DNA of 64,000 nucleotides from Escherichia coli (GTDB lineage: Bacteria; Pseudomonadota; Gammaproteobacteria; Enterobacterales; Enterobacteriaceae). Below the pieces are notes generated by a model that saw nothing but the letters and a program-made list of their open reading frames with translations, searched no databases and was not told the origin of the DNA. Both the position numbers and the translations under genes were made by a program. Below are positions 4,149 through 54,968 of the stretch, in pieces. Location: assembly GCF_024223415.1 (NCBI RefSeq), contig NZ_CP100500.1; one strand, given 5' to 3'. The first letter of the stretch is position 1. Each line of letters begins with the position of its first letter.

Positions 4149-4184
4149 ATAAAAAAGCCCCCGGAAGGTGATCTTCCGGGGGCT
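4149..4184 (-). terminator. his attenuator terminator (GC-rich hairpin plus U-run) between hisL and hisG
   Basis: Plus strand aaaaaagcccccggaaggtgatcttccgggggct; on minus strand a 12-bp stem followed by a T-run. Confidence 0.85.
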
Positions 4185-4247
4185 TTCTCATGCGTTCATG
4201 CACCACTGGAAGATCTGAATGTCTTCCAGCACACATCGCCTGAAAGA

Positions 4248-4298
4248 CTAGTCAGGATGATGGTGATGATGGTGGTGTTTAAATTGAACGCGTGTCAT
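4248..4298 (-). CDS. hisL: his operon leader peptide with seven consecutive His codons
   Basis: Minus strand ATGACACGCGTTCAATTTAAACACCACCATCATCACCATCATCCTGACTAG = MTRVQFKHHHHHHHPD. Confidence 0.95.
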   Translation of the reverse strand: MTRVQFKHHHHHHHPD

Positions 4299-6965: not shown

Positions 6966-7231
6966 AGAAAAATTATTATGGCAAGCCTCTCATTCTCTTG
7001 TCATTTCCCCCCCATTTAGGCACAATGCGCCGCTGTCAAAAAATGACTAAAAACCGACGTTTCATCAGCGTCGGTTATTTTTTGCTTCAAACCAATCATT
7101 CATACCAAGAGGCCGGGCTTCGTACCGGATAGATATTTACTAAAAATCGACAGTTGTTGTCGCTGAGGAATCCAAAAAAATGGGGCAATTTTTTGCTTAC
7201 GCGACGGTTATCACCGTAAAGGAGAATGACC

Positions 7232-22753: not shown

Positions 22754-25146
22754 AGCATTGTCTCCAGCTCTTCCCTCAGCGCCTTACTGTCAGTAATGAG
22801 CTCAGGAACCCTTTCATTTAATGCCTGAAGTCGCCCGGTAAGTCGTTCCTGCGCCTGCTGATCGCGTTTATGATCTTCAGAGCTCTGAATCAGCGTGTTA
22901 CGCAGTTGTTCAACTTTCTCCCTGAATGCGCAGAAAAAGGCATCGATTTCCTGGCGGACGGGCTGGTTAATATCCTGCTCAATGGATGCCTGCAGCTCCC
23001 CGAAATATGCCCGGGTCAGTGACATAACTTCCTCTCTGACCTTGTTGATATTGATCACGCTGCGACTCACATCCTCGTCATAGTTTTCCCAGCCCAGGTC
23101 ACTGGTGCCAAACCATCGACAAACGGTTCCCCATACGCCACTCTGCCGACGGCGACGGGTGACGGTCTCCGTTCTTTCCTCCATAAGCGCACTCAGATTT
23201 ATTTTTACCGCGAGCCGGGTCTGTAACTGGCTGACTGCCGGAAAACTGATTTTTACGGTAAAGCCCTCATCCTCCAGGCGGGCATTGATGCGACCGGCAA
23301 TGTTTTCTGTGGCGTACAGGGCCGTGCCACGAAAACCTGTTTCAATCCCGCTGACGATTTTCTCCAGCTCAGGCCGGAACTGTGCTTCAGCCTCACGGTG
23401 CAGGCTGGTCACGGTCGATTCGATTTGCGTCATCAGTTCAAGGGCTTCCCTGCGATCACTGAATTTTATTTCGGGGCTGTCCGGGGCAAAATCTCGTTTC
23501 CTGTAATCCTCCCGGCCCTGGTTGTTGATACCGGACCATTGAGAAATTTTCCCCCATAATCCGGACTGAGACCTTCGTTGTTCTGCGTCTTCTTCCTCCA
23601 GCATTTGCTGTTCTTTGCGTTTACCGCTTCTGAAATAGTCATTCAGCTCCTCTTCCAGTGAGGTGCAGACCCCCGTCAGTAATTCCCGGGTTTTAGTATC
23701 GATCTCCTCCATGGCCATTCTGACATCAGTGGTCATCTGCTCCTGACAGTCCGCGATTTCCCGGATATCCGCAAGCAGGCTGGTGATATGCGACTGCAGT
23801 GACTGAATGCTTTGCTGTAGCCCCTGATGGCGTAACAACAGGTATTCACTGATATTTTCTGCATTCTGCATCAGTTTTGCGGCGGCAGAGTCAACCGCCA
23901 GTGCCGCAGCTCTGGAATGTGAGCTCTGTATGACTTCCGTTATCAGTTGATCGATAAGTGAGCCTTCCCACAGGTCTGTCGCCCCTTCAGTTGCCAGTTC
24001 ACTGTCTTTACAGACGTATTCTTTTTTCATGCAACCGAAGGCACCTCTGATAAAATCATCGACCCAGGCTTCATCAACAGGAAGGGTTCCGTTTTTCCGT
24101 AACTCATGAAGCGCACGGTTAGCCAGGTATGCCTGGCGTGAGGATCCGGGATAAACGCGGGAGGCGGGCAGCACATCGCTGTTCAGCATTGCCGGAACTT
24201 TCTGGCGTACGGCATCTGCCCCATCGCCATTGCGGTCTTTCTCATCAAATTTATTGACCAGTACAAACAGGCGGCCGGCTGATACGTCAGCAATGGCATT
24301 AAGCTCTTTACGGACGTCTTCATCCGCTTTTGAGTTCATCTGGGTGTAATCCATCACAGCCAGAACCGCAGAGGCTTTCTGCAGTTGATCCCGCATCATC
24401 ACTTCCATCTGCGGTTGTCCGGCCTCATTAGGGCCGGGGGTATCCAGCAGTGTGAGTGTTCCCTGGCATGCATCCATCCCCACCAGATGGCTGAATTCCA
24501 CGTCGATCACCGGCAGTTTCTGCACTTCTGCGTATTCATCAAAAGGAAATTCAGTCCCCATTGCCGCAGCAAGACGAACCAGATCGTTTAACGATGCCAG
24601 TCCGGTAAAGATTTCCTCCTCCCCGTGGTATTCATTTTTGAGCCAGCCATCATCCGTCAGAATATCCAGCAGTTCGCGGGTATCCCCGGTTTGCTGCAGG
24701 GTCTGTGCGACCTGCTGTCCTGCCGGGGTGGCGAGTTTTTCCTGCAGTGTGATTAATAAATTGCGGACAGGCTGAATATGTTCCAGATGGAGAACCGGCT
24801 CAGTTTTTCCGGGAACGTGGCGGATGAGCGTCGGTACAGAGGTCATGGGGCGGTTACGGTTAGGCAGAATTTCCTGCCCCACAATGGCGTTGATGGTGGT
24901 TGATTTGCCTGCTTTCATCGTGCCGACAACAGCCAGCACCATCTCCCTGCGGGCGGTTTTGATTTGTTCGCCCTCCAGCTCCTCAATTCTTTTCAGTGCT
25001 TTCTGTTTATCAAAAAGCAGTCTGTTTTCGTTCTTACTGTCAGATAACACATCTGGCTCCTCAACCATTTGCCGGAGCAGATTAATGTTCAGTTGCAAAA
25101 GTCGGTCGGCTTCATCACAAAGCAGGGCGATGTTCTTTTCGTGCAT
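22750..25146 (-). CDS. Large dynamin-like GTPase (798 aa)
   Basis: P-loop GTMKAGKST, switch II DTPG, G4 NKFD, then ~450 aa of predicted helical region; SD AGGAAGG upstream of ATG 25146. Confidence 0.75.
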   Translation of the reverse strand: MHEKNIALLCDEADRLLQLNINLLRQMVEEPDVLSDSKNENRLLFDKQKALKRIEELEGEQIKTARREMVLAVVGTMKAGKSTTINAIVGQEILPNRNRPMTSVPTLIRHVPGKTEPVLHLEHIQPVRNLLITLQEKLATPAGQQVAQTLQQTGDTRELLDILTDDGWLKNEYHGEEEIFTGLASLNDLVRLAAAMGTEFPFDEYAEVQKLPVIDVEFSHLVGMDACQGTLTLLDTPGPNEAGQPQMEVMMRDQLQKASAVLAVMDYTQMNSKADEDVRKELNAIADVSAGRLFVLVNKFDEKDRNGDGADAVRQKVPAMLNSDVLPASRVYPGSSRQAYLANRALHELRKNGTLPVDEAWVDDFIRGAFGCMKKEYVCKDSELATEGATDLWEGSLIDQLITEVIQSSHSRAAALAVDSAAAKLMQNAENISEYLLLRHQGLQQSIQSLQSHITSLLADIREIADCQEQMTTDVRMAMEEIDTKTRELLTGVCTSLEEELNDYFRSGKRKEQQMLEEEDAEQRRSQSGLWGKISQWSGINNQGREDYRKRDFAPDSPEIKFSDRREALELMTQIESTVTSLHREAEAQFRPELEKIVSGIETGFRGTALYATENIAGRINARLEDEGFTVKISFPAVSQLQTRLAVKINLSALMEERTETVTRRRRQSGVWGTVCRWFGTSDLGWENYDEDVSRSVININKVREEVMSLTRAYFGELQASIEQDINQPVRQEIDAFFCAFREKVEQLRNTLIQSSEDHKRDQQAQERLTGRLQALNERVPELITDSKALREELETML

Positions 25147-25207
25147 TATTTAACCTTCCTAAGACGCATTTTCATGACAACCACGGAGGAGGTCATTTAC
25201 TACAAAC

Positions 25208-25242
25208 GATCGTTTATAACGATCGATATGATAGTAACGATC
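25208..25242. promoter_or_regulatory. Cluster of three GATC (Dam) sites within repeated AACGATCG motifs in the leader of the GTPase operon
   Basis: aaacGATCgtttataacGATCgatatgatagtaacGATCgatac; GATC at 25208, 25221, 25239. Confidence 0.5.
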
Positions 25243-25363
25243 GATACATTCTATTAACTTGAGAAACACAACGCAAGGGGACAACCCGGGTATGGCTGCG
25301 TTTGCATAGTGTTTTCATGGAGTTAAAAATCTGTAACAACAGCCTGGTACATCACCACCGGGT

Positions 25364-26241
25364 TCAGAAGAAAATCCAGTTCCATACCGCGCGGGCAACA
25401 GAGACCACCGAGTCACGGACGGCGCGCAGAACCGTGCGTGCAACAGAGGCAATGCAGACGCTCTCCGCCGTGTCAAATATCCGGTCCACCGCACCGGTAA
25501 ACTGTTCACGGGCCTGAGACCGGACAGACTCCGTGCGCAGCTCGTCCTGCAGGCGGGTCATCAGGGGACTGGCGGCATGGTCGGGAAGTGCTGTCATGAG
25601 CGCACTGACCAGCGTATCCAGTTCCCAGCCGGTGCGGGCCGATACGGCAACAACCCGATGTACGGGCCGGAACAGACGGAATACCGCCTCCGTTTTTTCG
25701 CGAATGTTCTGTGCCTGTGCGGGAGAAGGCTGAATACCGGCCATATCCCATTCATGGCAGGGCTCCGTTTTATCGGCCTGCATCACCACAAACAGTACCC
25801 GCTGATGTCCCCGGTGCAGGATGTGTCGCCAGAAATACTCATCCACAGACAGGGCACGGTCATCGGCTTTAATCAGCCACAGTACCAGGTCCAGTTCGAG
25901 CAGAATGTCACGGTACAGGGCTTCATACTCTGCATCCCTGTCCCGGCTCTCGCCCACCCCACCCCGGGCAGGTCAGTGATAACCATGCTGTGACCATGGC
26001 CATTCAGACGGAAGCGCTGCACTTCCCGGGGGCCGGCGTGAACATCACTGACCGGGGTGACCTCCCCCTGAAACAGCGCATTACAGAGTGAGGATTTACC
26101 GGCCCCGCTTTTACCCATAATGCCAGGCACGGGTTCGTGACTGGTGAGTTTGCGCAGATGTTCCAGGATGTGACGGGAAAGTGAGTAAGGCAGGGAGGAG
26201 AGCGGTTTTTCAATTGCCTCAATGGCATCAGACGGATTCAT
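25364..26241 (-). pseudogene. yeeP: YeeP/YfjP/YkfA-family GTPase split by a 5-bp tandem duplication
   Basis: ORF 25873..26280 (P-loop GIMGKSGAGKSSLCNALF ... ITDLPGVGW) and ORF 25364..25957 (GESRDRDAEYEALY...) in different frames; junction reads cccggggtgggGTGGGcgagagc. Confidence 0.75.
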
Positions 26242-26324
26242 ACATGTATTCCCGGTGAAAAAAGACAAAACCCCGCGCACCGGAAAGGTGGCGGGGGATT
26301 CACGGAAATAATATCTGTCTGAAA

Positions 26325-27488
26325 TTATCTGGAATCGATTTGGCTGTTCTGCCTGGTTGCCACCAAATCATGGTACGCCTGCTCAATCATTTCATTCAGC
26401 AGTTTTTTTGGGAGGACACCACGACTTCGGGCAATACTTTCAAGCTGTTTGTGGATTTTTCCGGACAGTTTCAGAGGGACGGAACCATCAGCACGTTCAT
26501 CACGCCTTTTTTGTTGCTCCCGGGCACTTTTCAGCTCATCAAGAAGAATCGCTTTATGCTGAATCCTGGGGGCCTGGAAGGAGACCTGCGTAAACTTCGC
26601 TCTGTTCCGTCTGGGATTACTTTCCAGTAAAAACTGTACCTGTTGCTCATTCCAGCCCTCCCAGTTATCAAACGTGGCGCAGGCAAACCAGTATTTCTGC
26701 TCCGGGGTAAGGGGATTCAGCGGGGTTCCCACACACCGGACCTGCATGGCGTTCCATAACCAGTCACACTGTTCACTGTCCCTGCTGTCCACCCACGAAA
26801 AGGGGGAGGGGTAATCATTGTTTATGCTGGCCCATTCAGAGAATACTGAGTTGATAATCGTCCTCGTAGCCTCTGGTCCGGATTTCAGCAGGTAACTGGA
26901 GCAGAACCATATAATTTCACGGTAGATTTTATCCGGATGCACGGTGCGCATCGGCTTTTCTCTGGGACCGGCAATCTTCGGTTGCGATGGAAACCCCGTG
27001 GCAAACCGCAGATGTTCCGGGGGCATTCCTGAACGTTTTTCAGGAATGGGTGTGAGTCCTGCGTTTCTGGTCTTTTCCGCTTGTCCGGTATTGCCTCCGG
27101 CCGGAGTGTTGTCGGGAGTATCTTCCGGAGGCGAGGTGTTTTCATTAGTTGGGGGAACAACAGCAGAACTGTCCATCTCCGGAATGGGTTGAGGGGCATA
27201 ATCACTGTGGTAGCCAGGGGAAAGCGTTAAGTCCCGAAGGGTGACATCAGGTTCCGGGCAGTGAGTGCCACCGGGAGTGAACGGGAGTTGTTGCTTTTGG
27301 GAGAAAAATGTATTGTGAATGCGGGTATACAGCTGGAACAGAAAAAAATAAGATGCCCGTGGTTCTTTTTTTAACCACTGTGTATATTCCTCTATGGCAC
27401 CGAGCTGTTGTTTGTGCCGTTTTACAGCATCGATATACGGACAGCTGGTGCAGATATCATCCAGTTCCTTTCCCACAATACACCTCAC
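26325..27488 (-). CDS. Hypothetical 387-aa island protein with a Pro/Thr-rich linker
   Basis: Long ORF with no recognised motif; sits between the island GTPase and the IS66 insertions. Confidence 0.45.
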   Translation of the reverse strand: MRCIVGKELDDICTSCPYIDAVKRHKQQLGAIEEYTQWLKKEPRASYFFLFQLYTRIHNTFFSQKQQLPFTPGGTHCPEPDVTLRDLTLSPGYHSDYAPQPIPEMDSSAVVPPTNENTSPPEDTPDNTPAGGNTGQAEKTRNAGLTPIPEKRSGMPPEHLRFATGFPSQPKIAGPREKPMRTVHPDKIYREIIWFCSSYLLKSGPEATRTIINSVFSEWASINNDYPSPFSWVDSRDSEQCDWLWNAMQVRCVGTPLNPLTPEQKYWFACATFDNWEGWNEQQVQFLLESNPRRNRAKFTQVSFQAPRIQHKAILLDELKSAREQQKRRDERADGSVPLKLSGKIHKQLESIARSRGVLPKKLLNEMIEQAYHDLVATRQNSQIDSR

Positions 27489-29043
27489 CTGCTTTTCTCA
27501 CATTTGCAGATTTTAAAAAAGCAAACAAAAACCTCCGTACATGATGTACAGAACAATCTACCAGGTAGTGGCGTCAGAAAACCCCCGGGCCGCCTGCACT
27601 TTCCAGAATGCGCCGGTTATGAAAAACCGGAAATTCAGTCTCTGTTGTAAGATGTACCCTCTGATACTACGTTTTCTCTGTGTATTTAACTCACTGTATT
27701 TATTGTCTTTTTAAGCTTGACTGATATTCTCCGGTCATAGTGTGCCGGATATACATCCCGTAAACTTCTCATTTTTATATAAAAATACCTGCACTCTCTT
27801 CAGCGCATCTGTCTCCTTTAAGTAAAAAATGTTTTCACGTATTGCTGTAAATTCATTTTAAATCAGTATATTACCTTGATATTGCTGTCTCCTGGTTTGA
27901 TGCGTAATCGTTCTGCCTTTCTGGATGATTCTGGTGCTTCCGGGTGCATTCTCCTCTGCACATGCAACAGTTCGTCATCGCCACGCTCCCAAAAAGCATA
28001 TAAAAACGAATCGAATTTGATATTTTTTTCAATCGTTTTTCATAGGAATTTCGTAGGGTATTCTCCGCTATAACCTCCATATTTGCTGCCTTTTTCTCCA
28101 TAAATCGTATGCAATATAGCCTGTCTGTCAAGACCTCTTCTCTGCTGTTGAGGAGACGATCTCATTTTTGGTCTTTTCCGGGAGAGAGGCTGTCAGATGA
28201 GCGAGCCGGATATACTGTCAGAGGTACACCCCGTAGCAGACCTGTGCTCCCATTTCCGCGATCCGGAACCAACAACACCCTACGGTTAATACCATTTGAA
28301 GCGTCAGGTACTGCAGGAAGTTCCCCCCTGCGCGGACATCGGTTCCTGCCGACATCTCACAATACGGCCAGACTGTCATGCAGTAACACCCGCATGCGGT
28401 CTGCGGTTTTAAGCGCACTCTCCCGTTTTCAGTGCACCGATAATGCGTCATAGTAAGTCTGGGGGAAGTTACGGAATGCCTGTTAAGTGGTGCCGTGGGT
28501 GGAGACAGCTTACTTTTCTACAGCAACTGCAGTCATTCAGGATGATCAGGAGATATTCTGTCAATGTCACGATCCTGCCATTTTCGTACCCGCTAAGATA
28601 CTTCCGTTACTGATGCTGTCCGCTTTTCACCATTTCATCCTCACTGACAGGCGTTGCGTTTTGGGTCATCACCACAGCTTTACGTTTCTCTTTTAACCGG
28701 TAACGCTCTCCTTTGATATTCAGCGTGGTTGAGTGATGCAGCAGTCAATCCAGGAGCGCTGTTGTCCGGCAACCACCATATCAACTTCTTCCCGGGTGTG
28801 GCGGAGAGGTGGTATCCTGGCTGAGTTTCGAAGCGAACCGTTCTTTTTGACGGGCGCATTTTACGTCCGGGCTGAATGTAGTAACGCGGCATGGAACGTC
28901 GGCCCGTATACCATTGCCTTAATCTCCGCAAAGATAACCTCGTCATTCCGGACATTCTCTGTAAGCGTCGTCTGAGTACCGTCTGGTCCCGAATCCAGGA
29001 TCCTGTAACTTAAGCACCCACTTATTTTGCAGGTGGACACCTC

Positions 29044-29427
29044 ATGCGCGCTAAAGAAAGACTTCCCCGGAAACACTATTCCCCTGAATTCAAAATGGAA
29101 CTGGTCAGGCTGGCTCTTGAAGAAGAAGGCAGTATTGCCGCACTGGCCCGGAAACATGACGTCAATGATAACCTGCTCTTTAAATGGATAAGGCTCTGGC
29201 AGCGTGAAGGGCGGGTCTGTCGGCCCCGAAAAAACTCATCGTCGCTTCCTGCCCTGATACCCGTGCAGCTTCAGGCGGGCTCTTCTCTCCCAACCTTCGA
29301 ACTACCATCCTGCTCTCCTCCCGCTACCTGCCACATAAAATGTCGGGGAGGAGAAATAACACTGACTCATCCCTCTGCTGAACTCATGAGCACTGTCCTG
29401 CGCGAACTGATGCGGGGGCCTGTATGA
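29044..29427 (+). CDS. IS66-family accessory protein TnpA (orfA)
   Basis: 127-aa ORF with HTH-like N-terminus; first of three IS66 ORFs. Confidence 0.8.
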   Translation: MRAKERLPRKHYSPEFKMELVRLALEEEGSIAALARKHDVNDNLLFKWIRLWQREGRVCRPRKNSSSLPALIPVQLQAGSSLPTFELPSCSPPATCHIKCRGGEITLTHPSAELMSTVLRELMRGPV

Positions 29428-29771
29428 TAAATCTTCCCGCAGGCACAAAAATCTGGCTGGTTGCCGGTATCACCGATATGCGCAACGGCTTCAATGGCCT
29501 CGCCGCAAAGGTGCAGACCGCGCTGAAAGATGACCCGATGTCCGGCCACGTCTTCATCTTCCGGGGACGCAGCGGCAGTCAGGTAAAACTGCTCTGGTCC
29601 ACCGGCGATGGTCTGTGCCTGCTGACAAAGCGACTAGAACGTGGTCGCTTCGCCTGGCCCTCAGCCCGCGATGGCAAAGTGTTCCTGACGCTGGCGCAAC
29701 TGGCGATGCTGATGGAAGGTATCGACTGGCGACAGCCAAAGCGGTTACTGACATCCCTGACCATGTTGTAG
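29424..29771 (+). CDS. IS66-family TnpB (orfB)
   Basis: 115-aa [33 protein letters not shown]...; 4-nt overlap with orfA. Confidence 0.85.
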   Translation: MINLPAGTKIWLVAGITDMRNGFNGLAAKVQTALKDDPMSGHVFIFRGRSGSQVKLLWSTGDGLCLLTKRLERGRFAWPSARDGKVFLTLAQLAMLMEGIDWRQPKRLLTSLTML

Positions 29772-29820
29772 CGCTCTTTATCCTGGTTGTCGCAGAATAA
29801 GCCTGGTAAAATACAGGCTT

Positions 29821-31356
29821 ATGAACGACACCTCTTCTGACGACATCCTTCTGCTGAAACAGCGCCTGGCCGAACAGGAAGCGTTGATCCACGCCCTGCA
29901 GGAAAAGCTGAGCAACCGGGAACGCGAAATAGACCATCTGCAGGCGCAACTGGATAAGCTGCGCCGGATGAACTTCGGCAGTCGTTCCGAAAAGGTATCC
30001 CGCCGTATCGCGCAAATGGAAGCTGACCTGAACCTGCTGCAGCAGGAAAGCGATACGCTGACCGGCCGGGTGGATGACCCGGCAGTGCAGCGCCCGCTGC
30101 GTCAGACCCGCACCCGCAAACCGTTCCCTGAGTCACTCCCACGGGATGAGAAGCGGCTGCTGCCGACTGAGCCGTGTTGCCCGGAGTGCGGTGGTTCGCT
30201 GAGTTACCTGGGTGAGGATGCCGCCGAACAGCTGGAGCTGATGCGCAGCGCCTTCCGGGTTATCCGGACAGTCCGTGAAAAGCATGCCTGCCGTCGGTGC
30301 GATCGCATCGTTCAGGCCCCGGCTCCTTCGCGCCCCATCGAACGGGGGATCGCCGGACCGGGGCTGCTGGCCCGAGTGCTGACCTCAAAGTATGCAGAGC
30401 ACATACCGCTGTATCGCCAGTCGGAGATCTATGCCCGCCAGGGTGTAGTGTTGAGTCGTTCTGTACTGTCGGGCTGGGTGGATGCGTGTTGTCGTCTGCT
30501 GGCACCGCTGGATGAAGCCCTTCAGCACTATGTCCTGACCGACGGCAAACTCCATGCTGACGATATGCCTGTCCCGGTGCTGTTGCCGGGCAATAAGAAG
30601 ACGAAGACCGGGCGCTTATGGACGTACGTTCGAGACGACCGCAACGCCGGATCAGCGCTGGCCCCCGCAGTGTGGTTCGCTTACAGCCCGGACAGAAAAG
30701 GTATCCACCCTCAGACCCATCTTGCAGGCTTCAGTGGCGTACTGCAGGCTGATGCCTACGCCGGGTTCAACGAGCTCTACCGCGACGGCCATATAAAGGA
30801 AGCCGCGTGCTGGGCCCATGCCCGCCGAAAAATCCACGATGTTCACGTCCGTACCCCGTCAGCCCTGACGGAGGAGGCGCTGAAACGGATCGGCGAGCTG
30901 TATGCCATCGAGTCGGAGCTCAGAGGTAAAAGAGCAGAGGAACGGCAGGCAGTCCGGCACCAAAAAGTGCTGCCGCTGCTGGCGTCACTGGAGGGGTGGC
31001 TGCGGGAGAAACAGAAAACCCTCTCAAGGCACTCAGAACTGGCGAAGGCGTTCGGGTATGCGCTGAACCAGTGGCCGGCGCTGACCCGCTATGCAGAAGA
31101 TGGCTGGGTGGAGGTGGATAATAACATTGCCGAAAACGCCCTACGACTGGTCAGTCTGGGGAGAAAAAACTGGCTGTTCTTCGGCTCGGATCATGGTGGT
31201 GAGCGCGGTGCGTCACTGTACAGTCTTATCGGGACGTGCAAATTAAACGGCGTGGATCCGGAACGCTATCTGCATCATGTACTTGATGTCATCGCCGACT
31301 GGCCTGTGAACCGGGTGGGTGCTCTGCTCCCGTGGCGGGTTACTCTGCCTGCCTGA
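29821..31356 (+). CDS. IS66-family transposase TnpC
   Basis: 511-aa ORF with N-terminal leucine zipper, CPECGG zinc motif and DDE region. Confidence 0.88.
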   Translation: MNDTSSDDILLLKQRLAEQEALIHALQEKLSNREREIDHLQAQLDKLRRMNFGSRSEKVSRRIAQMEADLNLLQQESDTLTGRVDDPAVQRPLRQTRTRKPFPESLPRDEKRLLPTEPCCPECGGSLSYLGEDAAEQLELMRSAFRVIRTVREKHACRRCDRIVQAPAPSRPIERGIAGPGLLARVLTSKYAEHIPLYRQSEIYARQGVVLSRSVLSGWVDACCRLLAPLDEALQHYVLTDGKLHADDMPVPVLLPGNKKTKTGRLWTYVRDDRNAGSALAPAVWFAYSPDRKGIHPQTHLAGFSGVLQADAYAGFNELYRDGHIKEAACWAHARRKIHDVHVRTPSALTEEALKRIGELYAIESELRGKRAEERQAVRHQKVLPLLASLEGWLREKQKTLSRHSELAKAFGYALNQWPALTRYAEDGWVEVDNNIAENALRLVSLGRKNWLFFGSDHGGERGASLYSLIGTCKLNGVDPERYLHHVLDVIADWPVNRVGALLPWRVTLPA

Positions 31357-31999
31357 CCAGCTTCACTTCGTCAATACGGTTCTCACTGCACGCTTACCAT
31401 TCTCTGCCAGGCATATGTCGATGTAATCCATAAACGATTTCAGCTTACCCCTTTTGTGGCCAGTCTTTCTGGCTGGCGGTTCAGGGGATGTTTTCTGGTT
31501 ATCGTGTACCACAAAGCAGGGATATTGCCCCGATAGTCACATTTCAGATTGATCGCGGTCTGAAGATGTGGCACTGAGGTAACGTGCTGGTGTCACTGGT
31601 ATTGCTGAAGTTATGGTTTTTCGGGGTCAGGTGAGCCTGTTGTGTGTATGCTTTTTGTTCAGGTCAGAGGGGGACTGTGTGGACAGCGGCTTTTGTCTCC
31701 GGGCATTCACGCCTGAACGATGAATGCGATTTTCAGCAATATTTGTCTTTGTGACACTCTCTGGTTGAGAAGCTAATGCGCGCCCCTGTTTCCACAGAGA
31801 ATGAGGCTTGCCATCAGCCGAAACATCAGTATTCCACGCCATACAGACGGCGCCTGACCATGTGCTGATGCAGGTAAAATGTTTCACTACAACTGTTCGG
31901 GTTGCTATGCAACGAAACAGCGATTCTCACGATCTTTAACTGCAACGTTTTTCCGCCTGAAAGTAAGCGTACAGCGAGGGCCGTATTGACGGGGATGTG

Positions 32000-50659: not shown

Positions 50660-50735
50660 TGGCTCCTCTGACTGGACTCGAACCAGTGACATACGGATTA
50701 ACAGTCCGCCGTTCTACCGACTGAACTACAGAGGA
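50660..50735 (-). tRNA. asnV: tRNA-Asn (anticodon GUU)
   Basis: Reverse complement is TCCTCTGTAGTTCAGTCGGTAGAACGGCGGACTGTTAATCCGTATGTCACTGGTTCGAGTCCAGTCAGAGGAGCCA; -35 TTGACA / -10 TAATAT upstream on minus strand. Confidence 0.95.
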
Positions 50736-50990
50736 ATCGTGTGAACGGGGCGCATATTAATGGCAGTGCATGGTGATGTCAAAGGGTGAAATGCATTTTT
50801 TTGTTTGTTTGCTGCCAATTTCAACAAAGTGGTGAGCTTTCAATCTTATTGGGTAATGAACCATCGTGGTGCATACCCTCCTTTTATAGGGCAGGTGAAT
50901 GCGACTGCAGATAAAAAGAGCCAATGACGAATCTATCATAATCTCTTATTTGACAGTTGGTTAGCTTGCGCATCAACGCCAAAATAGAAC

Positions 50991-51006
50991 TGGCAAGCAT
51001 CTTGCA
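50991..51006 (+). promoter_or_regulatory. Sigma-54-type promoter element upstream of nac
   Basis: TGGCAagcatcTTGCA matches GG-N10-GC, about 55 bp upstream of nac ATG. Confidence 0.7.
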
Positions 51007-51061
51007 TTCTGGTTGTAAGTAATGGCGGCACTTGGGCCGACTCTTAAAAACCGGAGGCAAC

Positions 51062-51979
51062 ATGAACTTCAGACGCCTGAAATACTTCGTAAAAATTGTA
51101 GATATTGGTAGCCTGACCCAGGCTGCTGAAGTATTGCATATCGCACAACCAGCGCTCAGCCAGCAGGTTGCCACACTGGAAGGTGAGTTTAATCAACAAC
51201 TTTTGATTCGCACAAAACGGGGCGTTACGCCAACTGACGCCGGAAAAATTCTCTATACCCATGCGCGGGCCATTTTACGTCAGTGTGAGCAGGCCCAACT
51301 GGCGGTGCATAACGTTGGTCAGGCATTATCGGGGCAAGTCTCGATTGGCTTTGCGCCAGGAACCGCTGCGTCATCCATCACCATGCCCTTATTACAGGCG
51401 GTTCGCGCTGAATTCCCGGAGGTCGTTATCTATCTTCATGAAAATAGCGGTGCAGTGCTTAACGAAAAACTGATAAATCACCAACTCGATATGGCGGTGA
51501 TTTATGAGCATTCCCCTGTGGCTGGTGTATCCAGTCAGGCTTTACTGAAAGAAGATCTTTTCCTGGTAGGGACTCAAGATTGTCCGGGGCAAAGCGTTGA
51601 TGTTAATGCTATTGCGCAAATGAACCTCTTTCTTCCCAGTGATTACAGTGCTGTTAGACTTCGTGTTGATGAGGCTTTTTCCCTACGGCGACTCACGGCA
51701 AAAGTCATTGGTGAAATTGAGTCTATTGCCACGCTTACCGCAGCGATTGCCAGCGGCATGGGCGTTGCAGTATTACCCGAATCGGCCGCGCGTTCGTTAT
51801 GTGGCGCAGTAAACGGGTGGATGTCACGCATTACCACACCTTCCATGAGTCTCTCTTTGTCATTAAATTTACCCGCCAGAGCGAACTTATCACCACAGGC
51901 ACAGGCAGTGAAAGAGTTGTTAATGTCAGTGATGAGTTCTCCAGTGATGGAAAAAAGGCAGTGGCAATTGGTGAGCTAA
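51062..51979 (+). CDS. nac: Nitrogen assimilation control protein (LysR family)
   Basis: ORF 51032..51979; 305-aa product from MNFRRLKYFVKIVDIGSLTQAAEVLHIAQPALSQQV. Confidence 0.93.
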   Translation: MNFRRLKYFVKIVDIGSLTQAAEVLHIAQPALSQQVATLEGEFNQQLLIRTKRGVTPTDAGKILYTHARAILRQCEQAQLAVHNVGQALSGQVSIGFAPGTAASSITMPLLQAVRAEFPEVVIYLHENSGAVLNEKLINHQLDMAVIYEHSPVAGVSSQALLKEDLFLVGTQDCPGQSVDVNAIAQMNLFLPSDYSAVRLRVDEAFSLRRLTAKVIGEIESIATLTAAIASGMGVAVLPESAARSLCGAVNGWMSRITTPSMSLSLSLNLPARANLSPQAQAVKELLMSVMSSPVMEKRQWQLVS

Positions 51980-52080
51980 GCGTTATATCGGGATGGAATA
52001 AGATGCGGGTTTTTATTATTTGTTATGCCGGGCATTAGACTTTAACAATAACGGAAAATCTGAACTGCCCGGAGTTTACC

Positions 52081-53031
52081 GTGAATTTCCAACAACTAAA
52101 GATAATCCGCGAGGCTGCACGTCAGGATTACAACCTGACAGAGGTTGCGAATATGCTTTTTACCTCACAGTCCGGCGTCAGCCGTCATATTCGGGAACTG
52201 GAGGATGAACTTGGCATCGAAATATTTGTTCGACGAGGTAAGCGACTGCTGGGCATGACTGAACCGGGCAAAGCATTACTGGTCATTGCTGAACGTATTC
52301 TGAATGAAGCCAGTAATGTTCGTCGGCTTGCAGACCTGTTTACCAACGATACGTCTGGCGTTCTCACTATTGCAACGACGCATACTCAGGCACGTTATAG
52401 TTTGCCAGAGGTCATTAAATCTTTTCGCGAACTTTTCCCGGAGGTTCGGCTCGAGCTAATCCAGGGGACGCCACAGGAAATTGCGACGTTGTTGCATAAT
52501 GGTGAAGCTGATATTGGTATCGCCAGCGAGCGTTTGAGTAATGACCCGCAGCTCGTCGCCTTCCCGTGGTTTCGTTGGCACCATAGTTTGCTTGTTCCAC
52601 TCGATCATCCCTTGACGCAAATTACACCATTGACGCTGGAATCAATAGCGAAGTGGCCGTTAATCACTTACCGACAGGGGATTACGGGGCGCTCACGTAT
52701 TGATGACGCATTTGCCCGCAAAGGTTTGCTGGCAGATATTGTATTAAGTGCGCAGGATTCTGATGTCATTAAAACCTATGTTGCTCTTGGGCTTGGGATC
52801 GGAATAGTTGCCGAACAATCCAGCGGTGAACAAGAGGAAAAGAATTTAATCCGCCTGGATACGCGGCATCTTTTTGATGCTAATACTGTCTGGTTGGGAC
52901 TGAAGCGAGGACAACTTCAGCGTAACTATGTCTGGCGCTTTCTGGAACTTTGTAATGCAGGGCTTTCAGTTGAGGATATCAAGCGGCAGGTGATGGAAAA
53001 CAGTGAAGAGGAAATTGATTATCAGATATAG
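52081..53031 (+). CDS. cbl: CysB-like LysR-family regulator Cbl
   Basis: 316-aa ORF MNFQQLKIIREAARQDYNLTEVANMLFTSQSGVSRHIRELE... Confidence 0.93.
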   Translation: MNFQQLKIIREAARQDYNLTEVANMLFTSQSGVSRHIRELEDELGIEIFVRRGKRLLGMTEPGKALLVIAERILNEASNVRRLADLFTNDTSGVLTIATTHTQARYSLPEVIKSFRELFPEVRLELIQGTPQEIATLLHNGEADIGIASERLSNDPQLVAFPWFRWHHSLLVPLDHPLTQITPLTLESIAKWPLITYRQGITGRSRIDDAFARKGLLADIVLSAQDSDVIKTYVALGLGIGIVAEQSSGEQEEKNLIRLDTRHLFDANTVWLGLKRGQLQRNYVWRFLELCNAGLSVEDIKRQVMENSEEEIDYQI

Positions 53032-53068
53032 CAAAAAGCCCGCTATAAAAGCGGGCTTTTCAGAAATT

Positions 53069-53144
53069 TGGCTCCTCTGACTGGACTCGAACCAGTGACA
53101 TACGGATTAACAGTCCGCCGTTCTACCGACTGAACTACAGAGGA
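53069..53144 (-). tRNA. asnU: tRNA-Asn (anticodon GUU)
   Basis: Identical 76-nt tRNA-Asn sequence on minus strand; terminator hairpin of cbl directly upstream at 53034-53062. Confidence 0.95.
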
Positions 53145-53304
53145 ATCGCTGTTGAGGCACATCTTAACGGCGAAAAATCTTTTGTCAAACCCGATTTTTA
53201 ATTTTCCCAACTGTTTGCCGTTTCTATCAACAGTTTGTTGCATTTGCAGACAATTTGTTGGCGAAAATCTTTGCAGCTTTGCTGATTCTCCCTCATTATT
53301 TGAA

Positions 53305-54792
53305 ATGTGGTTTCACTTTCTGCAATTAAGGTCGGCTTTGAATATCTCCTCTGCTTTACGCCAGGTTGTTCACGGCACTCGCTGGCACGCTAAACGCAAG
53401 AGCTACAAAGTGTTGTTCTGGCGCGAGATAACCCCGCTTGCTGTTCCTATCTTCATGGAGAATGCCTGTGTCCTGTTGATGGGGGTTCTGAGCACTTTTC
53501 TGGTCAGCTGGCTGGGAAAAGATGCGATGGCCGGCGTGGGATTGGCGGACAGCTTCAATATGGTCATTATGGCTTTTTTTGCTGCTATCGATCTTGGTAC
53601 TACTGTCGTTGTGGCATTTAGTCTCGGTAAGCGGGATCGACGACGAGCGAGGGTGGCGACGCGGCAGTCATTGGTGATCATGACGTTGTTTGCCGTACTG
53701 TTGGCAACGATTATTCATCATTTTGGCGAGCAAATTATTGATTTTGTCGCGGGTGATGCCACGACAGAAGTTAAAGCACTGGCGTTGACTTATCTGGAGC
53801 TGACGGTACTCAGTTATCCAGCAGCTGCCATCACTTTGATTGGTAGCGGGGCACTTCGTGGTGCAGGGAATACGAAAATACCGCTACTGATTAACGGTAG
53901 CCTGAATATTCTTAATATTATTATTAGCGGCATATTGATTTACGGCCTTTTCTCCTGGCCGGGACTGGGATTTGTCGGGGCTGGGTTGGGGTTAACCATT
54001 TCTCGTTATATTGGCGCAGTGGCAATTTTGTGGGTGCTGGCGATTGGTTTTAATCCTGCGCTAAGGATTTCGTTAAAGAGCTATTTTAAACCGCTGAATT
54101 TTAGCATTATCTGGGAAGTCATGGGGATTGGTATTCCCGCGAGTGTCGAATCAGTGTTATTTACCAGTGGTCGGTTATTAACCCAAATGTTCGTTGCCGG
54201 GATGGGGACCAGTGTTATTGCCGGAAATTTTATCGCGTTTTCAATTGCGGCTCTTATCAACTTACCCGGAAGTGCGCTCGGCTCTGCTTCTACGATCATT
54301 ACAGGCCGAAGGTTGGGTGTAGGACAGATAGCGCAAGCAGAGATTCAGTTGCGGCATGTGTTCTGGCTTTCCACTCTTGGATTAACGGCCATCGCCTGGC
54401 TAACGGCTCCCTTTGCCGGGGTTATGGCATCGTTTTACACCCAGGATCCACAGGTTAAACATGTCGTTGTGATTCTGATTTGGCTAAATGCTTTATTTAT
54501 GCCTATTTGGTCTGCCTCATGGGTGCTACCCGCTGGATTTAAGGGTGCTCGCGATGCACGTTACGCCATGTGGGTTTCTATGTTGAGCATGTGGGGTTGC
54601 CGGGTTGTAGTCGGTTATGTGCTGGGAATCATGCTTGGCTGGGGTGTGGTTGGTGTCTGGATGGGAATGTTTGCCGACTGGGCTGTGCGGGCCGTGCTGT
54701 TTTACTGGCGAATGGTTACTGGACGTTGGCTGTGGAAATATCCTCGACCTGAGCCGCAAAAGTGTGAAAAAAAGCCAGTTGTGTCGGAATAA
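53305..54792 (+). CDS. yeeO: MATE-family multidrug/flavin efflux transporter YeeO
   Basis: ORF 53152..54792; 495-aa product from MWFHFLQLRSALN (53305); multi-TM. Confidence 0.85.
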   Translation: MWFHFLQLRSALNISSALRQVVHGTRWHAKRKSYKVLFWREITPLAVPIFMENACVLLMGVLSTFLVSWLGKDAMAGVGLADSFNMVIMAFFAAIDLGTTVVVAFSLGKRDRRRARVATRQSLVIMTLFAVLLATIIHHFGEQIIDFVAGDATTEVKALALTYLELTVLSYPAAAITLIGSGALRGAGNTKIPLLINGSLNILNIIISGILIYGLFSWPGLGFVGAGLGLTISRYIGAVAILWVLAIGFNPALRISLKSYFKPLNFSIIWEVMGIGIPASVESVLFTSGRLLTQMFVAGMGTSVIAGNFIAFSIAALINLPGSALGSASTIITGRRLGVGQIAQAEIQLRHVFWLSTLGLTAIAWLTAPFAGVMASFYTQDPQVKHVVVILIWLNALFMPIWSASWVLPAGFKGARDARYAMWVSMLSMWGCRVVVGYVLGIMLGWGVVGVWMGMFADWAVRAVLFYWRMVTGRWLWKYPRPEPQKCEKKPVVSE

Positions 54793-54845
54793 ACGACAAA
54801 GTGCAGATTATTTCAGCAAACGATTTCAAATTTAAAAAACAGGCT

Positions 54846-54874
54846 TTGACATTGTGGATGAGCGTCGCTAATAT
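54846..54874 (+). promoter_or_regulatory. Sigma-70 promoter of tRNA-Asn (TTGACA-17-TAATAT)
   Basis: TTGACAttgtggatgagcgtcgcTAATAT about 19 bp upstream of the tRNA 5' end. Confidence 0.75.
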
Positions 54875-54892
54875 TCGCCTCGTTCTCACGAT

Positions 54893-54968
54893 TCCTCTGT
54901 AGTTCAGTCGGTAGAACGGCGGACTGTTAATCCGTATGTCACTGGTTCGAGTCCAGTCAGAGGAGCCA
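54893..54968 (+). tRNA. asnW: tRNA-Asn (anticodon GUU)
   Basis: TCCTCTGTAGTTCAGTCGGTAGAACGGCGGACTGTTAATCCGTATGTCACTGGTTCGAGTCCAGTCAGAGGAGCCA. Confidence 0.95.

Follow-up and report, generated by a model that had tools for sequence, protein, structure and literature searches.

The RfaH ops element has the consensus GGCGGTAGnnTG, and the small RNA IsrC of Escherichia coli is encoded in CP4-44. Control by antitermination has been described for AlpA of Pseudomonas aeruginosa, where an AlpA-binding element lies in the promoter and a terminator lies downstream (PMC7969949, PMC9371919); the element reads GGGACG-N5-GGTA and sits between -35 and -10 (PMC7969949). For the conjugation operon of pLS20, a 456-nt multi-switch leader is reported (PMC13401043). 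Esr41 of OI-43 is encoded in the interval from z1181 to z1182, and its terminator is GC-rich (PMC8565820).

Here we analyzed positions 27489-28960 of a stretch of 64,000 nucleotides of E. coli DNA (contig NZ_CP100500.1; the whole stretch is called the window). A sequence-only reading had treated these 1.5 kb as a single gene-poor, AT-rich feature carrying a palindrome upstream of a 387-aa island gene, and had proposed a regulatory or operator region, a decayed gene or possibly a small RNA. The region is in fact composite, consisting of an old IS21-type wreck and about 1 kb of non-coding DNA located 5' of an uncharacterised island gene. We tentatively favor, with something short of even confidence, the view that the non-coding part would be a long regulated leader in which a hairpin formed by the palindrome may act as a weak terminator or pause site.

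Results and discussion

Composition and distribution of the region

The left part, 27489-28558, corresponds to 1070 bp of island DNA that is unannotated in nearly all carrier genomes. This 1.1-kb segment was found in 2,092 of the 5,426 complete E. coli genomes (about 40%), in identity tiers of 99, 97, 94 and 87%, and further variants at 84.5, 80.5 and 76% identity were recovered via protein homologues. Most carrier genomes hold copies at least 94% identical, with up to four copies per genome, and carriers include O104:H4, O145, O103 and one O157 strain. The phage collection gave no match to the 1070 bp, and the plasmid collection gave three records only, which were uninformative. The region belongs to the backbone of CP4-like islands, which deliver cargo such as Ag43 and dynamin-like GTPases.

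The 1070 bp are conserved in related islands, and the identity of non-coding DNA among variants is highest at 27990-28200, with the best-conserved block at 27990-28150. The description as AT-rich applies to about 27550-28150 (40% GC) and fails for the stretch as a whole (46% GC vs 50% for the window); 28151-28960 has 50-52% GC. We also considered an insertion of about 470 bp between T-rich near-repeats at 28004 and 27531 and dropped it, as terminal repeats are missing and the proximal leader differs too. Features are collected in Table 1.

Table 1. Features of the region and its flanks, with positions in the window.
Feature	Positions	Strand	Remarks
387-aa island gene, orphan family	26325-27488	-	longest-ORF GTG start at 27488
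TAAAAT, possible -10 hexamer	27510-27515	-	just 3' of the H3 U-run; no recognisable -35
Hairpin H3 (palindrome extended)	27523-27553	-	UCUGUACA-UCA-UGUACGGA (27533-27553), then GUUUUUGUUU (27523-27532); terminator/attenuator-like
9-bp unit ATGTACAGA	27544-27552	+	single here, tandemly doubled in L003 and L004 (alignment)
Hairpin H2	27780-27807 (stem 27790-27807)	-	UGCGCU-GAAGAG-AGUGCA, then GGUAUUUUUA; terminator-like; -7.9 kcal/mol
100-codon orphan frame "MRSSPQQQ..."	27863-28165	-	in-frame TGA at 28040-28042; not a functional gene
Hairpin H1, AU-rich	28002-28040	-	13 pairs, 1 bulge, 12-nt loop; U-rich tract to 27991
Conserved motif CCTACGAAATTCCTATG	28041-28057	-	core direct repeat CTACG-N6-CTAYG (28041-28056), half-sites 11 bp apart
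Sigma-70-like promoter TTGACA-16-TACGAT	28104-28131	-	10/12 consensus matches; predicted start near 28097
Variable spacer	28151-28558	.	52% GC, many indels; window-type lineages only, absent from L014-type islands
IS21-family remnant	28559-28960	-	terminal repeat, istB 3' end, istA fragment; PGAP annotation of identical DNA
IS66-family element (tnpA, tnpB, tnpC)	28961-31397	+	inserted in the istA fragment; GTAAGCG...CGCTTAC termini, 8-bp target duplication

An IS21-family remnant hit by an IS66-family element

The view of the 1.5 kb as one unit did not hold, as its right end is the remnant of an IS21-family element. Its terminal repeat, beginning TGTCAATGTCACGAT, together with 48 nt to the istB stop, occupies 28559-28606 and is followed by the last 138 nt of istB (28607-28744), by an internal deletion and by a fragment of istA (28759-28960) that resumes at 31398, past the IS66-family element. 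The istA and istB fragments are 88% identical in nucleotides to IS21. From 28559, TGTCAATGTCACGAT aligns with TGTCAACGCCACGAT, the IS21 right end at the tandem (IS21)2 junction, and the remnant carries a terminal inverted repeat of the IS21 type (TGTCA...), which places it in the family. On identical DNA in other genomes, PGAP calls just two IS21 pseudogene fragments. As only fragments of istA and istB are present, the remnant is non-functional. It occupies this site in all window-type variants examined (down to about 80% identity) and is absent from L014-type islands. An end at 28508, suggested by H70, was rejected: H70 is an IS26 truncation of the same island, and the true terminus is at 28559.

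The earlier reading had placed an IS66 insertion in the stretch, and this was confirmed between 28960 and 28961, with CATTCTCT duplicated at 28953-28960 and 31398-31405. The comparison with islands lacking the insertion, which that reading had called for, yielded insertion-free alleles in L004 and L026. Carriers without the IS66 insertions also include ABU 83972, ATCC 25922 and an O104:H4 strain. Since 28559-28960 is an IS21-family remnant, the target of the insertion was a dead IS and not unique intergenic DNA. Historically, the right-hand part is what is left of the right end of an inactive IS21-family element, and in this strain an IS66-family element later landed in it.

The island gene and its AlpA-family neighbor

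The 387-aa gene has a Shine-Dalgarno-like sequence, AGGTGAGGTG, at 27482-27491, and PGAP starts the identical gene in other genomes at 27476. Its product has no Pfam or NCBIfam match and few homologues, of which the distant ones are about 30% identical. By eye, its C-terminus gives the impression of a strand-helix-helix DNA-binding module. A ribbon-helix-helix or other DNA-binding fold was not confirmed for this protein, as no Pfam or PDB sequence match was obtained and the low-confidence AlphaFold model (pLDDT 57) had no significant Foldseek match. In every relative, a small AlpA-named HTH protein is encoded beside the homologue of the 387-aa gene, and its gene is divergent from that homologue in Citrobacter, Cronobacter, Serratia and L020-L022. 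The island AlpA-family protein has a Phage_AlpA domain; among PDB chains it found only 8c3t ("AlpA family phage regulatory protein") and TorI, both weakly (E about 0.06-0.1).

Absence of coding potential

The region has no coding potential, in agreement with the earlier statement that it holds no convincing ORF: PGAP calls only the IS21 fragments, and every ORF of at least 56 aa tested on either strand of the stretch is disrupted in some variant. The only exception, an ORF of 41 codons, is broken in the L014 type, and its changes are mostly non-synonymous.

A further candidate is the 100-codon "MRSS" frame, and we asked whether it could be the decayed remnant of a formerly functional protein-coding gene. 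Several variants keep its 100 codons continuous but for one TGA, and an allele with CGA at this place (P0002, P0003) gives an open 100-aa ORF in some strains. Nevertheless, this explanation is very improbable. The TGA occurs in all 8 of the 8 diverged variants, with extra frameshifts or stops in L004, L013 and L014, and the substitutions in this segment are mostly non-synonymous and favor no codon position in any of the three frames, with no coding signature. Among 5.8 billion proteins the frame has relatives only at the same E. coli locus, most of them frameshifted assemblies or read-through translations, and it has no Pfam or NCBIfam match. The suggestion of a decayed gene thus applies to the right-hand 400 bp, where what decayed is an IS21-type element, and not to any island gene.

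A promoter-like site and a family-wide repeat

As for a regulatory region, conservation supports this for the left 1070 bp, and the strongest signal lies about 500 nt from the palindrome, at the promoter-like site and the CTACG repeat. Among 7 variants, the promoter-like site varies at 6 of its 16 spacer positions and at none in either hexamer; we calculate a probability of C(16,6)/C(28,6) = 0.02 for such a confinement of all 6 variable sites to the spacer by chance. Chance alone gives about 3 promoter-like matches of such quality in 1.8 kb. With the L014-type island, the most divergent, homology starts at about 28148, just upstream of the -35 hexamer.

Of the 25 loci fetched, 19 have a single exact copy of the direct repeat CTACG-N6-CTAYG, always on the gene strand, and L005 has one mismatch. 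Wherever a homologue of the 387-aa gene was retrieved together with its upstream DNA, that DNA contains the repeat in exact or relaxed form. The loci include five distant ones (about 30% protein identity; Citrobacter koseri and Cronobacter sakazakii among them), where the repeat stands 143-164 nt before the start codon, and Serratia and Hafnia have the relaxed form CTACA-N6-CTACR. The degenerate pattern is expected by chance 0.1-0.2 times per locus. Full-text searches with the motif and palindrome sequences found no papers. Near the motif (about 150 nt from the start codon), the distant relatives have no equivalent promoter or hairpins; therefore, the architecture with a 600-nt leader is specific to the E. 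coli type.

The palindrome as part of a probable RNA hairpin

The perfect palindrome GTACATGATGTAC (GTACAT-G-ATGTAC) was located at 27537-27549, as reported before, and its distance of about 49 nt to the gene corresponds to 48 nt to the longest-ORF GTG and 60 nt to the PGAP start. Taken alone, it is within chance expectation: a 6+1+6 repeat occurred in 31% of dinucleotide shuffles, and the 5 perfect 6-bp inverted repeats of the region (spacers of 0-10) compare with 3.9 +/- 2.3 in the shuffles.

Extension of the palindrome gives hairpin H3, which ends 35 nt before the GTG. The minus-strand form has a free energy of -8.7 kcal/mol (z -2.9 against shuffles) and the plus-strand form one of -4.3, and the stem of 8-9 pairs, only 3 of them G-C, is weaker than in typical terminators. 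The extended stem needs G-U pairs, and therefore it exists only as minus-strand RNA. All 8 core pairs persist in the 7 variants compared, the most divergent of which is about 76% identical. Two core pairs have changed on both sides; a similar change at the ninth pair, outermost and weak, is unreliable, and two further pairs show wobble or one-sided changes. In this small sample of 7 variants, 92% of cells are paired vs 21-57% with the partners slid, and only 3 of 500 shuffles reached the covariation score. On the gene-sense strand, the U-run GUUUUUGUUUGCUUUUUU is kept in 7 of 7 variants, even where the surroundings are only about 55% identical.

The earlier reading had taken the palindrome for an operator. 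In a specific form of this idea, GTACA-N3-TGTAC would be bound as DNA by a dimeric regulator, for which the 387-aa protein and the island AlpA-family protein are conceivable; with TAAAAT as the -10 hexamer, the centre of the site would lie about 40 bp 5' of the transcription start, and the regulator would activate or repress the gene from there. The palindrome is indeed present in window-type variants, its spacing to TAAAAT would resemble that of a class II activator site, and L014 changes both half-sites symmetrically, as is also expected from co-evolution with a binding protein; the look of the 387-aa C-terminus would fit as well. On the other hand, L009 alters one half-site only, and to a G-U-compatible base, and the conserved U-run directly follows a stem that forms only in gene-sense RNA. 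TAAAAT is kept in the window-type variants L003, L004, L005, L009 and L013 and is missing from L014 and L017, which favors a promoter upstream of H3. Considering also the chance-level palindrome, the compensatory changes and the lack of a confirmed DNA-binding fold in the 387-aa protein, a protein-binding operator is distinctly unlikely, and the best reading of the palindrome is a small, conserved hairpin in RNA with a U-tail, possibly a weak terminator.

Hairpins H1 and H2 and the question of a small RNA

Two further hairpins with U-runs lie between the promoter-like site and H3. H1 (-8.3 kcal/mol, z -1.5) has all cells paired in 7 variants, with one-sided changes only at 3 pairs; H2 has 92% of cells paired in 7 variants, and its changes are likewise one-sided only. 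All three hairpins are weak (-8 to -9 kcal/mol, at most 3 G-C pairs), and H1 and H2 lack the both-sided compensatory changes. Folding z-scores were +0.4 and +0.3 for the two strands of 27775-28100 and -1.0 for 27470-27790; thus the leader folds no better than shuffles, and there is no evidence of structured RNA.

These data bear on the possibility that the conserved core encodes a small RNA that starts at the promoter-like site, measures about 100 nt if it ends at H1 or about 315 nt if it ends at H2, and acts in trans or on the adjacent gene. Horizontally acquired islands of E. coli are known to encode small RNAs (PMC8565820), and the promoter-like site, the 100 nt or so that follow and a hairpin with a U-rich tail make up exactly the segment best conserved against the 76% variant, with no coding signature. 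However, a scan with the covariance models of Rfam 15 gave no match at E<=1 in 25000-31000 and none here at the gathering score in a search of the whole window. Shuffled sequences fold just as stably, neither H1 nor H2 makes a good terminator, and distant relatives keep the motif but not the hairpin, which points to a DNA-level element. The caution of the earlier reading about a small RNA stands to this extent, and we give the idea little credence.

A tentative model

In the leader model that we favor, the non-coding DNA of 27489-28558 belongs to the 387-aa gene as its upstream region and would be read on the minus strand. Transcription would start at the sigma-70-like promoter and cross CTACG-N6-CTAYG, a putative site of an island-encoded regulator. 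The transcript would continue as an AT-rich leader of about 600 nt with the three weak hairpin-plus-U-run elements, and H3, whose stem is the palindrome, would serve for weak intrinsic termination or for pausing, 35-45 nt ahead of the start codon. In this position, H3 may limit or gate read-through into the 387-aa gene. The sample behind the model is small, seven or eight related E. coli variants, among which recombination between copies could create conservation peaks.

The variant L005 retains the upstream region despite the deletion of most of the 387-aa gene, an observation that speaks against the leader model. It would be expected if the non-IS DNA were a neutral relic, its conservation reflecting recent horizontal spread and recombination and its promoter, hairpins and palindrome having arisen by chance. 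Taken singly, the features are close to what chance would give; the copies in most genomes are at least 94% identical, and with up to four of them per genome gene conversion is possible. Yet CTACG-N6-CTAYG survives across genera whose proteins are only about 30% identical and whose other intergenic DNA has diverged, H3 shows compensatory changes, and the promoter hexamers are invariant while their spacer varies. A neutral relic is therefore unlikely, although it deserves some weight.

The family-wide DNA repeat, the probable promoter and the conserved hairpin offer concrete, inexpensive targets for asking how these islands turn on backbone genes. Apart from those targets, the region is ordinary IS debris and leader DNA and opens no long-standing question. 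A bolder and highly speculative proposal is that the promoter, the repeat and the three sense-strand hairpins form an attenuation or antitermination switch for the 387-aa gene, operated by an island protein (the AlpA-family HTH protein being the candidate), or else that the first 100 nt are a new island small RNA.

Comparison with known systems

The right-hand part resembles the IS21 family by its IS21-type terminus, its istB 3' end, its istA fragment and an identity of about 88%; it differs in that the remnant here is dead, has an internal deletion estimated to be of the order of 1.4 kb and is split by an IS66-family element.

For the left-hand part, an RfaH/ops-dependent leader was rejected, since the ops consensus is absent from the region at up to one mismatch. 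The region is not Esr41 either, which is located elsewhere in OI-43. It shares with Esr41 and IsrC a short conserved intergenic unit on a mobile island, in which a promoter-like site is combined with a hairpin and U-run, whereas the hairpins here are AU-rich and the region has no Rfam match.

Leaders with terminators or attenuators before acquired genes, such as that of pLS20 (PMC13401043), share with this region a long untranslated AT-rich stretch from a promoter-like site to a gene and sense-strand hairpins with U-runs. Compared with such leaders, the hairpins here are weak, and no antiterminator, leader peptide or alternative structure was identified.

AlpA of P. aeruginosa offers the remaining comparison. 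Its element GGGACG-N5-GGTA is absent from 27489-28558 at up to 2 mismatches, and the repeat found here lies downstream of the promoter-like site and not between -35 and -10. In common are an AlpA-named HTH gene adjoining the target, a short conserved element near a promoter and terminator-like hairpins before the gene. If the proposed switch were true, it would be a second, sequence-unrelated case of AlpA-style control, in widespread CP4-like islands of E. coli.

Origin and composition of the stretch

The stretch 27489-28960 combines two ordinary things, a dead insertion sequence and a conserved putative leader. It belongs to a genomic island on the E. coli chromosome, between the his leader and three tRNA-Asn genes (50.6-55 kb), a neighbourhood where K-12 carries the degraded CP4-44 element (yeeP-flu). 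The island backbone, read on the minus strand, consists of an AlpA-family HTH gene, a 200-aa gene, the stretch itself, the 387-aa gene (26325-27488), a YeeP-like GTPase gene, and genes for a dynamin-family protein, an RdcB-family protein and a patatin-like phospholipase. The description of the stretch as AT-rich clearly holds only for 27550-28150 (40% GC), the whole having 46% GC vs 50% for the window.

Coordinates of features in the stretch and its surroundings
Feature	Coordinates	Strand	Remarks
H1, AU-rich hairpin with U-rich tail	28040-28002	sense (minus)	
H2, hairpin with U-rich tail	27807-27790	sense (minus)	
H3, UCUGUACA-UCA-UGUACGGA, then GUUUUUGUUUGCUUUUUU	27553-27533	minus (gene-sense)	terminator scan; palindrome at its centre
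Promoter-like TTGACA-16-TACGAT	28131-28104	minus	
Motif CCTACGAAATTCCTATG	28057-28041	minus	
C-terminal fragment of AAA ATPase (IstB)	28607-28744		PGAP, genomes with 99.9% identical DNA
Frameshifted IS21-family transposase fragment	28759-28965		PGAP, genomes with 99.9% identical DNA
his operon leader	4149-4272		
sRNA STnc240	7011-7085		
Three tRNA-Asn genes	50660-54968		

The right-hand ~400 bp of the stretch shares ~88% DNA identity with IS21 and is IS21-family debris. Alignment to the tandem (IS21)2 junction places the remnant terminus, TGTCAATGTCACGAT, from 28559; an apparent IS21 end at 28508 (H70) was rejected, since it is IS26 that truncates the same island there. The remnant occupies the same position in every window-type variant examined, down to 80% identity, and it is old. 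With GTAAGCG at 28961 and CGCTTAC at 31397 as its two ends, the IS66-family element lies between copies of the duplication CATTCTCT; two related islands (L004, L026) lack it. The sequence-only reading had named the stretch as the target of this insertion, which is right in position, the actual target being the dead IS21 copy. A second IS66-family element (31963 to ~34400, inverted orientation, ~83% identical to the first) is missing from L001, a related locus that elsewhere matches the window at 98.6-99.7%.

Among 5,426 complete E. coli genomes, 2,092 have the other 1070 bp (27489-28558), with few exceptions on the chromosome, and in nearly all of them this DNA lacks annotation. By identity, 945 records fall at >=99%, 159 at 95-99%, 808 at 90-95% and 182 at 80-90%. 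A phage collection gave no match, and a plasmid collection gave three, one being a 1-Mb "plasmid". A record of this size (NZ_CP079635.1, 1,039,047 bp, labelled as a Klebsiella pneumoniae plasmid, with only 5 annotated features) includes DNA that is 99.5-100% identical to the E. coli island; mislabelling or contamination of the assembly may explain this. More divergent variants were reached via homologues of the 387-aa protein: L009-L011 (84.5%), L013 (80.5%), and L014, L017 and L018 (76%). In this last, L014 type, homology to the window begins only at ~28148; an unrelated pseudogene lies upstream and the IS21 remnant is not there. Only four of the 5,426 genomes have the form of the island (L014 1777-3337, L018 2639-3141) in which the remnant is replaced by ~1.5 kb of G+C-rich DNA, which PGAP calls a frameshifted, unnamed protein fragment.

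Coding potential

The most gene-like frame ("MRSSPQQQ...") has 100 codons on the minus strand, from 28165 to 27863, with one in-frame TGA at 28040-28042. It has 33 matches among 5.8 billion proteins, and the dozen inspected are all versions of the same E. coli locus, many of them frameshifted or read-through translations; two (P0002, P0003) carry an open CGA allele. The translations of P0001, P0004, P0007, P0018 and P0033 cross stop codons (TGA as W) or change frame; these "proteins" are gene-calling artefacts, from error-prone assemblies or alternative genetic codes, and not real homologues.

A decayed island gene is unlikely here: the TGA is found in all eight diverged variants, with extra frameshifts in L004 and L013 and an extra stop in L014; substitutions are mostly non-synonymous and, whichever of the three frames is used, fall evenly on the codon positions; and the frame has no Pfam or NCBIfam match. 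Each ORF of at least 56 aa tested in the stretch is disrupted in at least one variant, and a 41-codon ORF, intact in six variants, is disrupted in L014. The earlier statement that there is no convincing ORF is thus upheld, and the suggested decayed gene survives only as the IS21 debris.

A conserved direct repeat beside a promoter-like site

Comparison with related islands placed the highest non-coding identity at ~27990-28200, where variants of 76-87% overall identity reach 92-98% (L005 and L009), 86-96% (L013) and 71-79% (L014), vs 45-80% in 28250-28560 and, for L014, 45-62% in 27500-27990. The peak includes the promoter-like site, the motif CCTACGAAATTCCTATG and H1. Across seven variants, all 12 hexamer positions of the promoter-like site are invariant while 6 of the 16 spacer positions vary, a split whose probability is 0.02 by our own calculation.

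The pattern CCTACGAATTnnCTAyG is invariant in the five distant loci L012 and L019-L022, 143-164 nt 5' of the start codon, in otherwise divergent intergenic DNA, and Serratia and Hafnia have the relaxed form CTACA-N6-CTACR. The exact pattern occurs in 19 of the 25 loci retrieved for this count, as a single copy always on the gene strand; L005 has one mismatch, and the other non-matching loci lack the region or have the relaxed form. Chance expectation for the degenerate form is 0.1-0.2 per locus. At the core, two half-sites repeat in the same direction at a distance of 11 bp, about one turn of the helix. Such an arrangement is typical of protein-binding sites, and we consider this direct repeat a putative one. 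Distant loci have the motif without the hairpins and the promoter, so it most likely functions at the level of DNA.

The palindrome as the centre of a probable weak terminator or pause hairpin

The palindrome GTACAT-G-ATGTAC lies at 27537-27549 as described, 48 nt before the GTG of the longest ORF (27488) and 60 nt before the PGAP start of the identical gene (27476). The stretch with it had been proposed as a regulatory or operator region. Perfect 6-bp inverted repeats with spacers of 0-10 number 5 in the stretch vs 3.9 +/- 2.3 in dinucleotide-preserving shuffles, and a 6+1+6 repeat is present in 31% of such shuffles, so the palindrome alone is no signal; the outer pairs of the stem moreover require G-U. 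An operator at this position is therefore probably not the explanation.

As RNA, H3 folds at -8.7 kcal/mol on the minus strand (z -2.9), the plus strand giving -4.3. The eight core pairs persist across the seven variants compared. L013 changes a U-G pair to C-G and L009 an A-U to G-U; L014 has two-sided changes at two pairs (U-A to C-G, A-U to G-C), and L017 has only the first of these, with one unpaired cell. Counting nine pairs, 92% of cells are paired vs 21-57% with partners slid, and the covariation score is matched by 3 of 500 shuffles. The U-run after H3 is kept though L014 is only ~55% identical across the segment, while a possible -10 (TAAAAT, 27515-27510) just 3' of H3 is not conserved in L014. 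These features suggest that the palindrome probably belongs to the leader of the 387-aa gene, where it would be a weak, conserved hairpin of the intrinsic-terminator or pause type; an operator is less favoured.

H1 and H2 keep their pairing across variants through one-sided changes only, and the leader as a whole does not fold more stably than shuffles. Neither an Rfam match nor an RfaH ops element was found in the region. Most likely, transcription would start at the putative promoter (28104-28131), and the transcript would cross the direct repeat and a 600-nt AT-rich leader, with attenuation at H1-H3 ahead of the 387-aa gene; promoter, attenuation and binding protein are what we infer from sequence. 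The sequence-only reading was thus partly confirmed in its observations and partly supported in its interpretation: the regulatory part stands on the conserved repeat and promoter-like site, and the operator at the palindrome probably does not stand.

The 387-aa family and its neighbours

Relatives of the 387-aa protein are few (~30% identity in Citrobacter koseri, Cronobacter sakazakii and three further assemblies; 27% in Serratia quinivorans and Hafnia paralvei). This very small family has a variable low-complexity middle and a conserved C-terminus, VPLKLSGKIHKQLESIARSRG...LLNEMIEQAY, which looks like strand-helix-helix. Nothing in Pfam, NCBIfam or PDB matches the protein, nor did its AlphaFold model (pLDDT 57, low confidence) give a significant structural match.

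Downstream of the gene, before the GTPase gene, lies a terminator-like hairpin that is G+C-rich and has a T-run (~26271-26285, within 26262-26335); the 387-aa gene may therefore be transcribed as a unit by itself. Adjoining this hairpin is a 36-bp element (26300-26335) whose counterparts, 92% identical, lie upstream of GTPase genes: at 6140-6175 of L012 in Citrobacter, and at 1241-1276 of L004, by a second GTPase copy. The proteins on either side share only ~30% identity. In the window strain the GTPase gene is a pseudogene, since a 5-bp insertion (CCCAC, 25953-25957), relative to the otherwise near-identical L001, splits it into ORFs 25364-25957 and 25873-26280.

Gene calls in five distant loci (L012, L019-L022) place the AlpA-family and 197-199-aa genes divergent from a 370-aa gene with ~500 bp between; in L022 the 197-199-aa gene runs off the contig end, and the same layout in Serratia (L023) comes from an ORF list. 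In all E. coli variants, by contrast, these genes are co-oriented with the 387-aa gene, and the junction is occupied by the IS21 remnant or a different pseudogene, which suggests an old inversion separating the two arrangements. In Citrobacter koseri (L012 1-1837), an OLD-type TOPRIM ATPase and UvrD-like helicase gene pair adjoins the island module, a pair that we take to resemble a Gabija-type defence system.

Against solved structures, the island AlpA-family protein matched only 8c3t ("AlpA family phage regulatory protein") and TorI, both weakly. The AlpA-binding element of P. aeruginosa was sought in the region as published (PMC7969949) and was not found, so the E. coli island differs in this from the P. 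aeruginosa AlpA system; the sole moderately interesting element here is the direct repeat, conserved across the family beside a promoter-like site.
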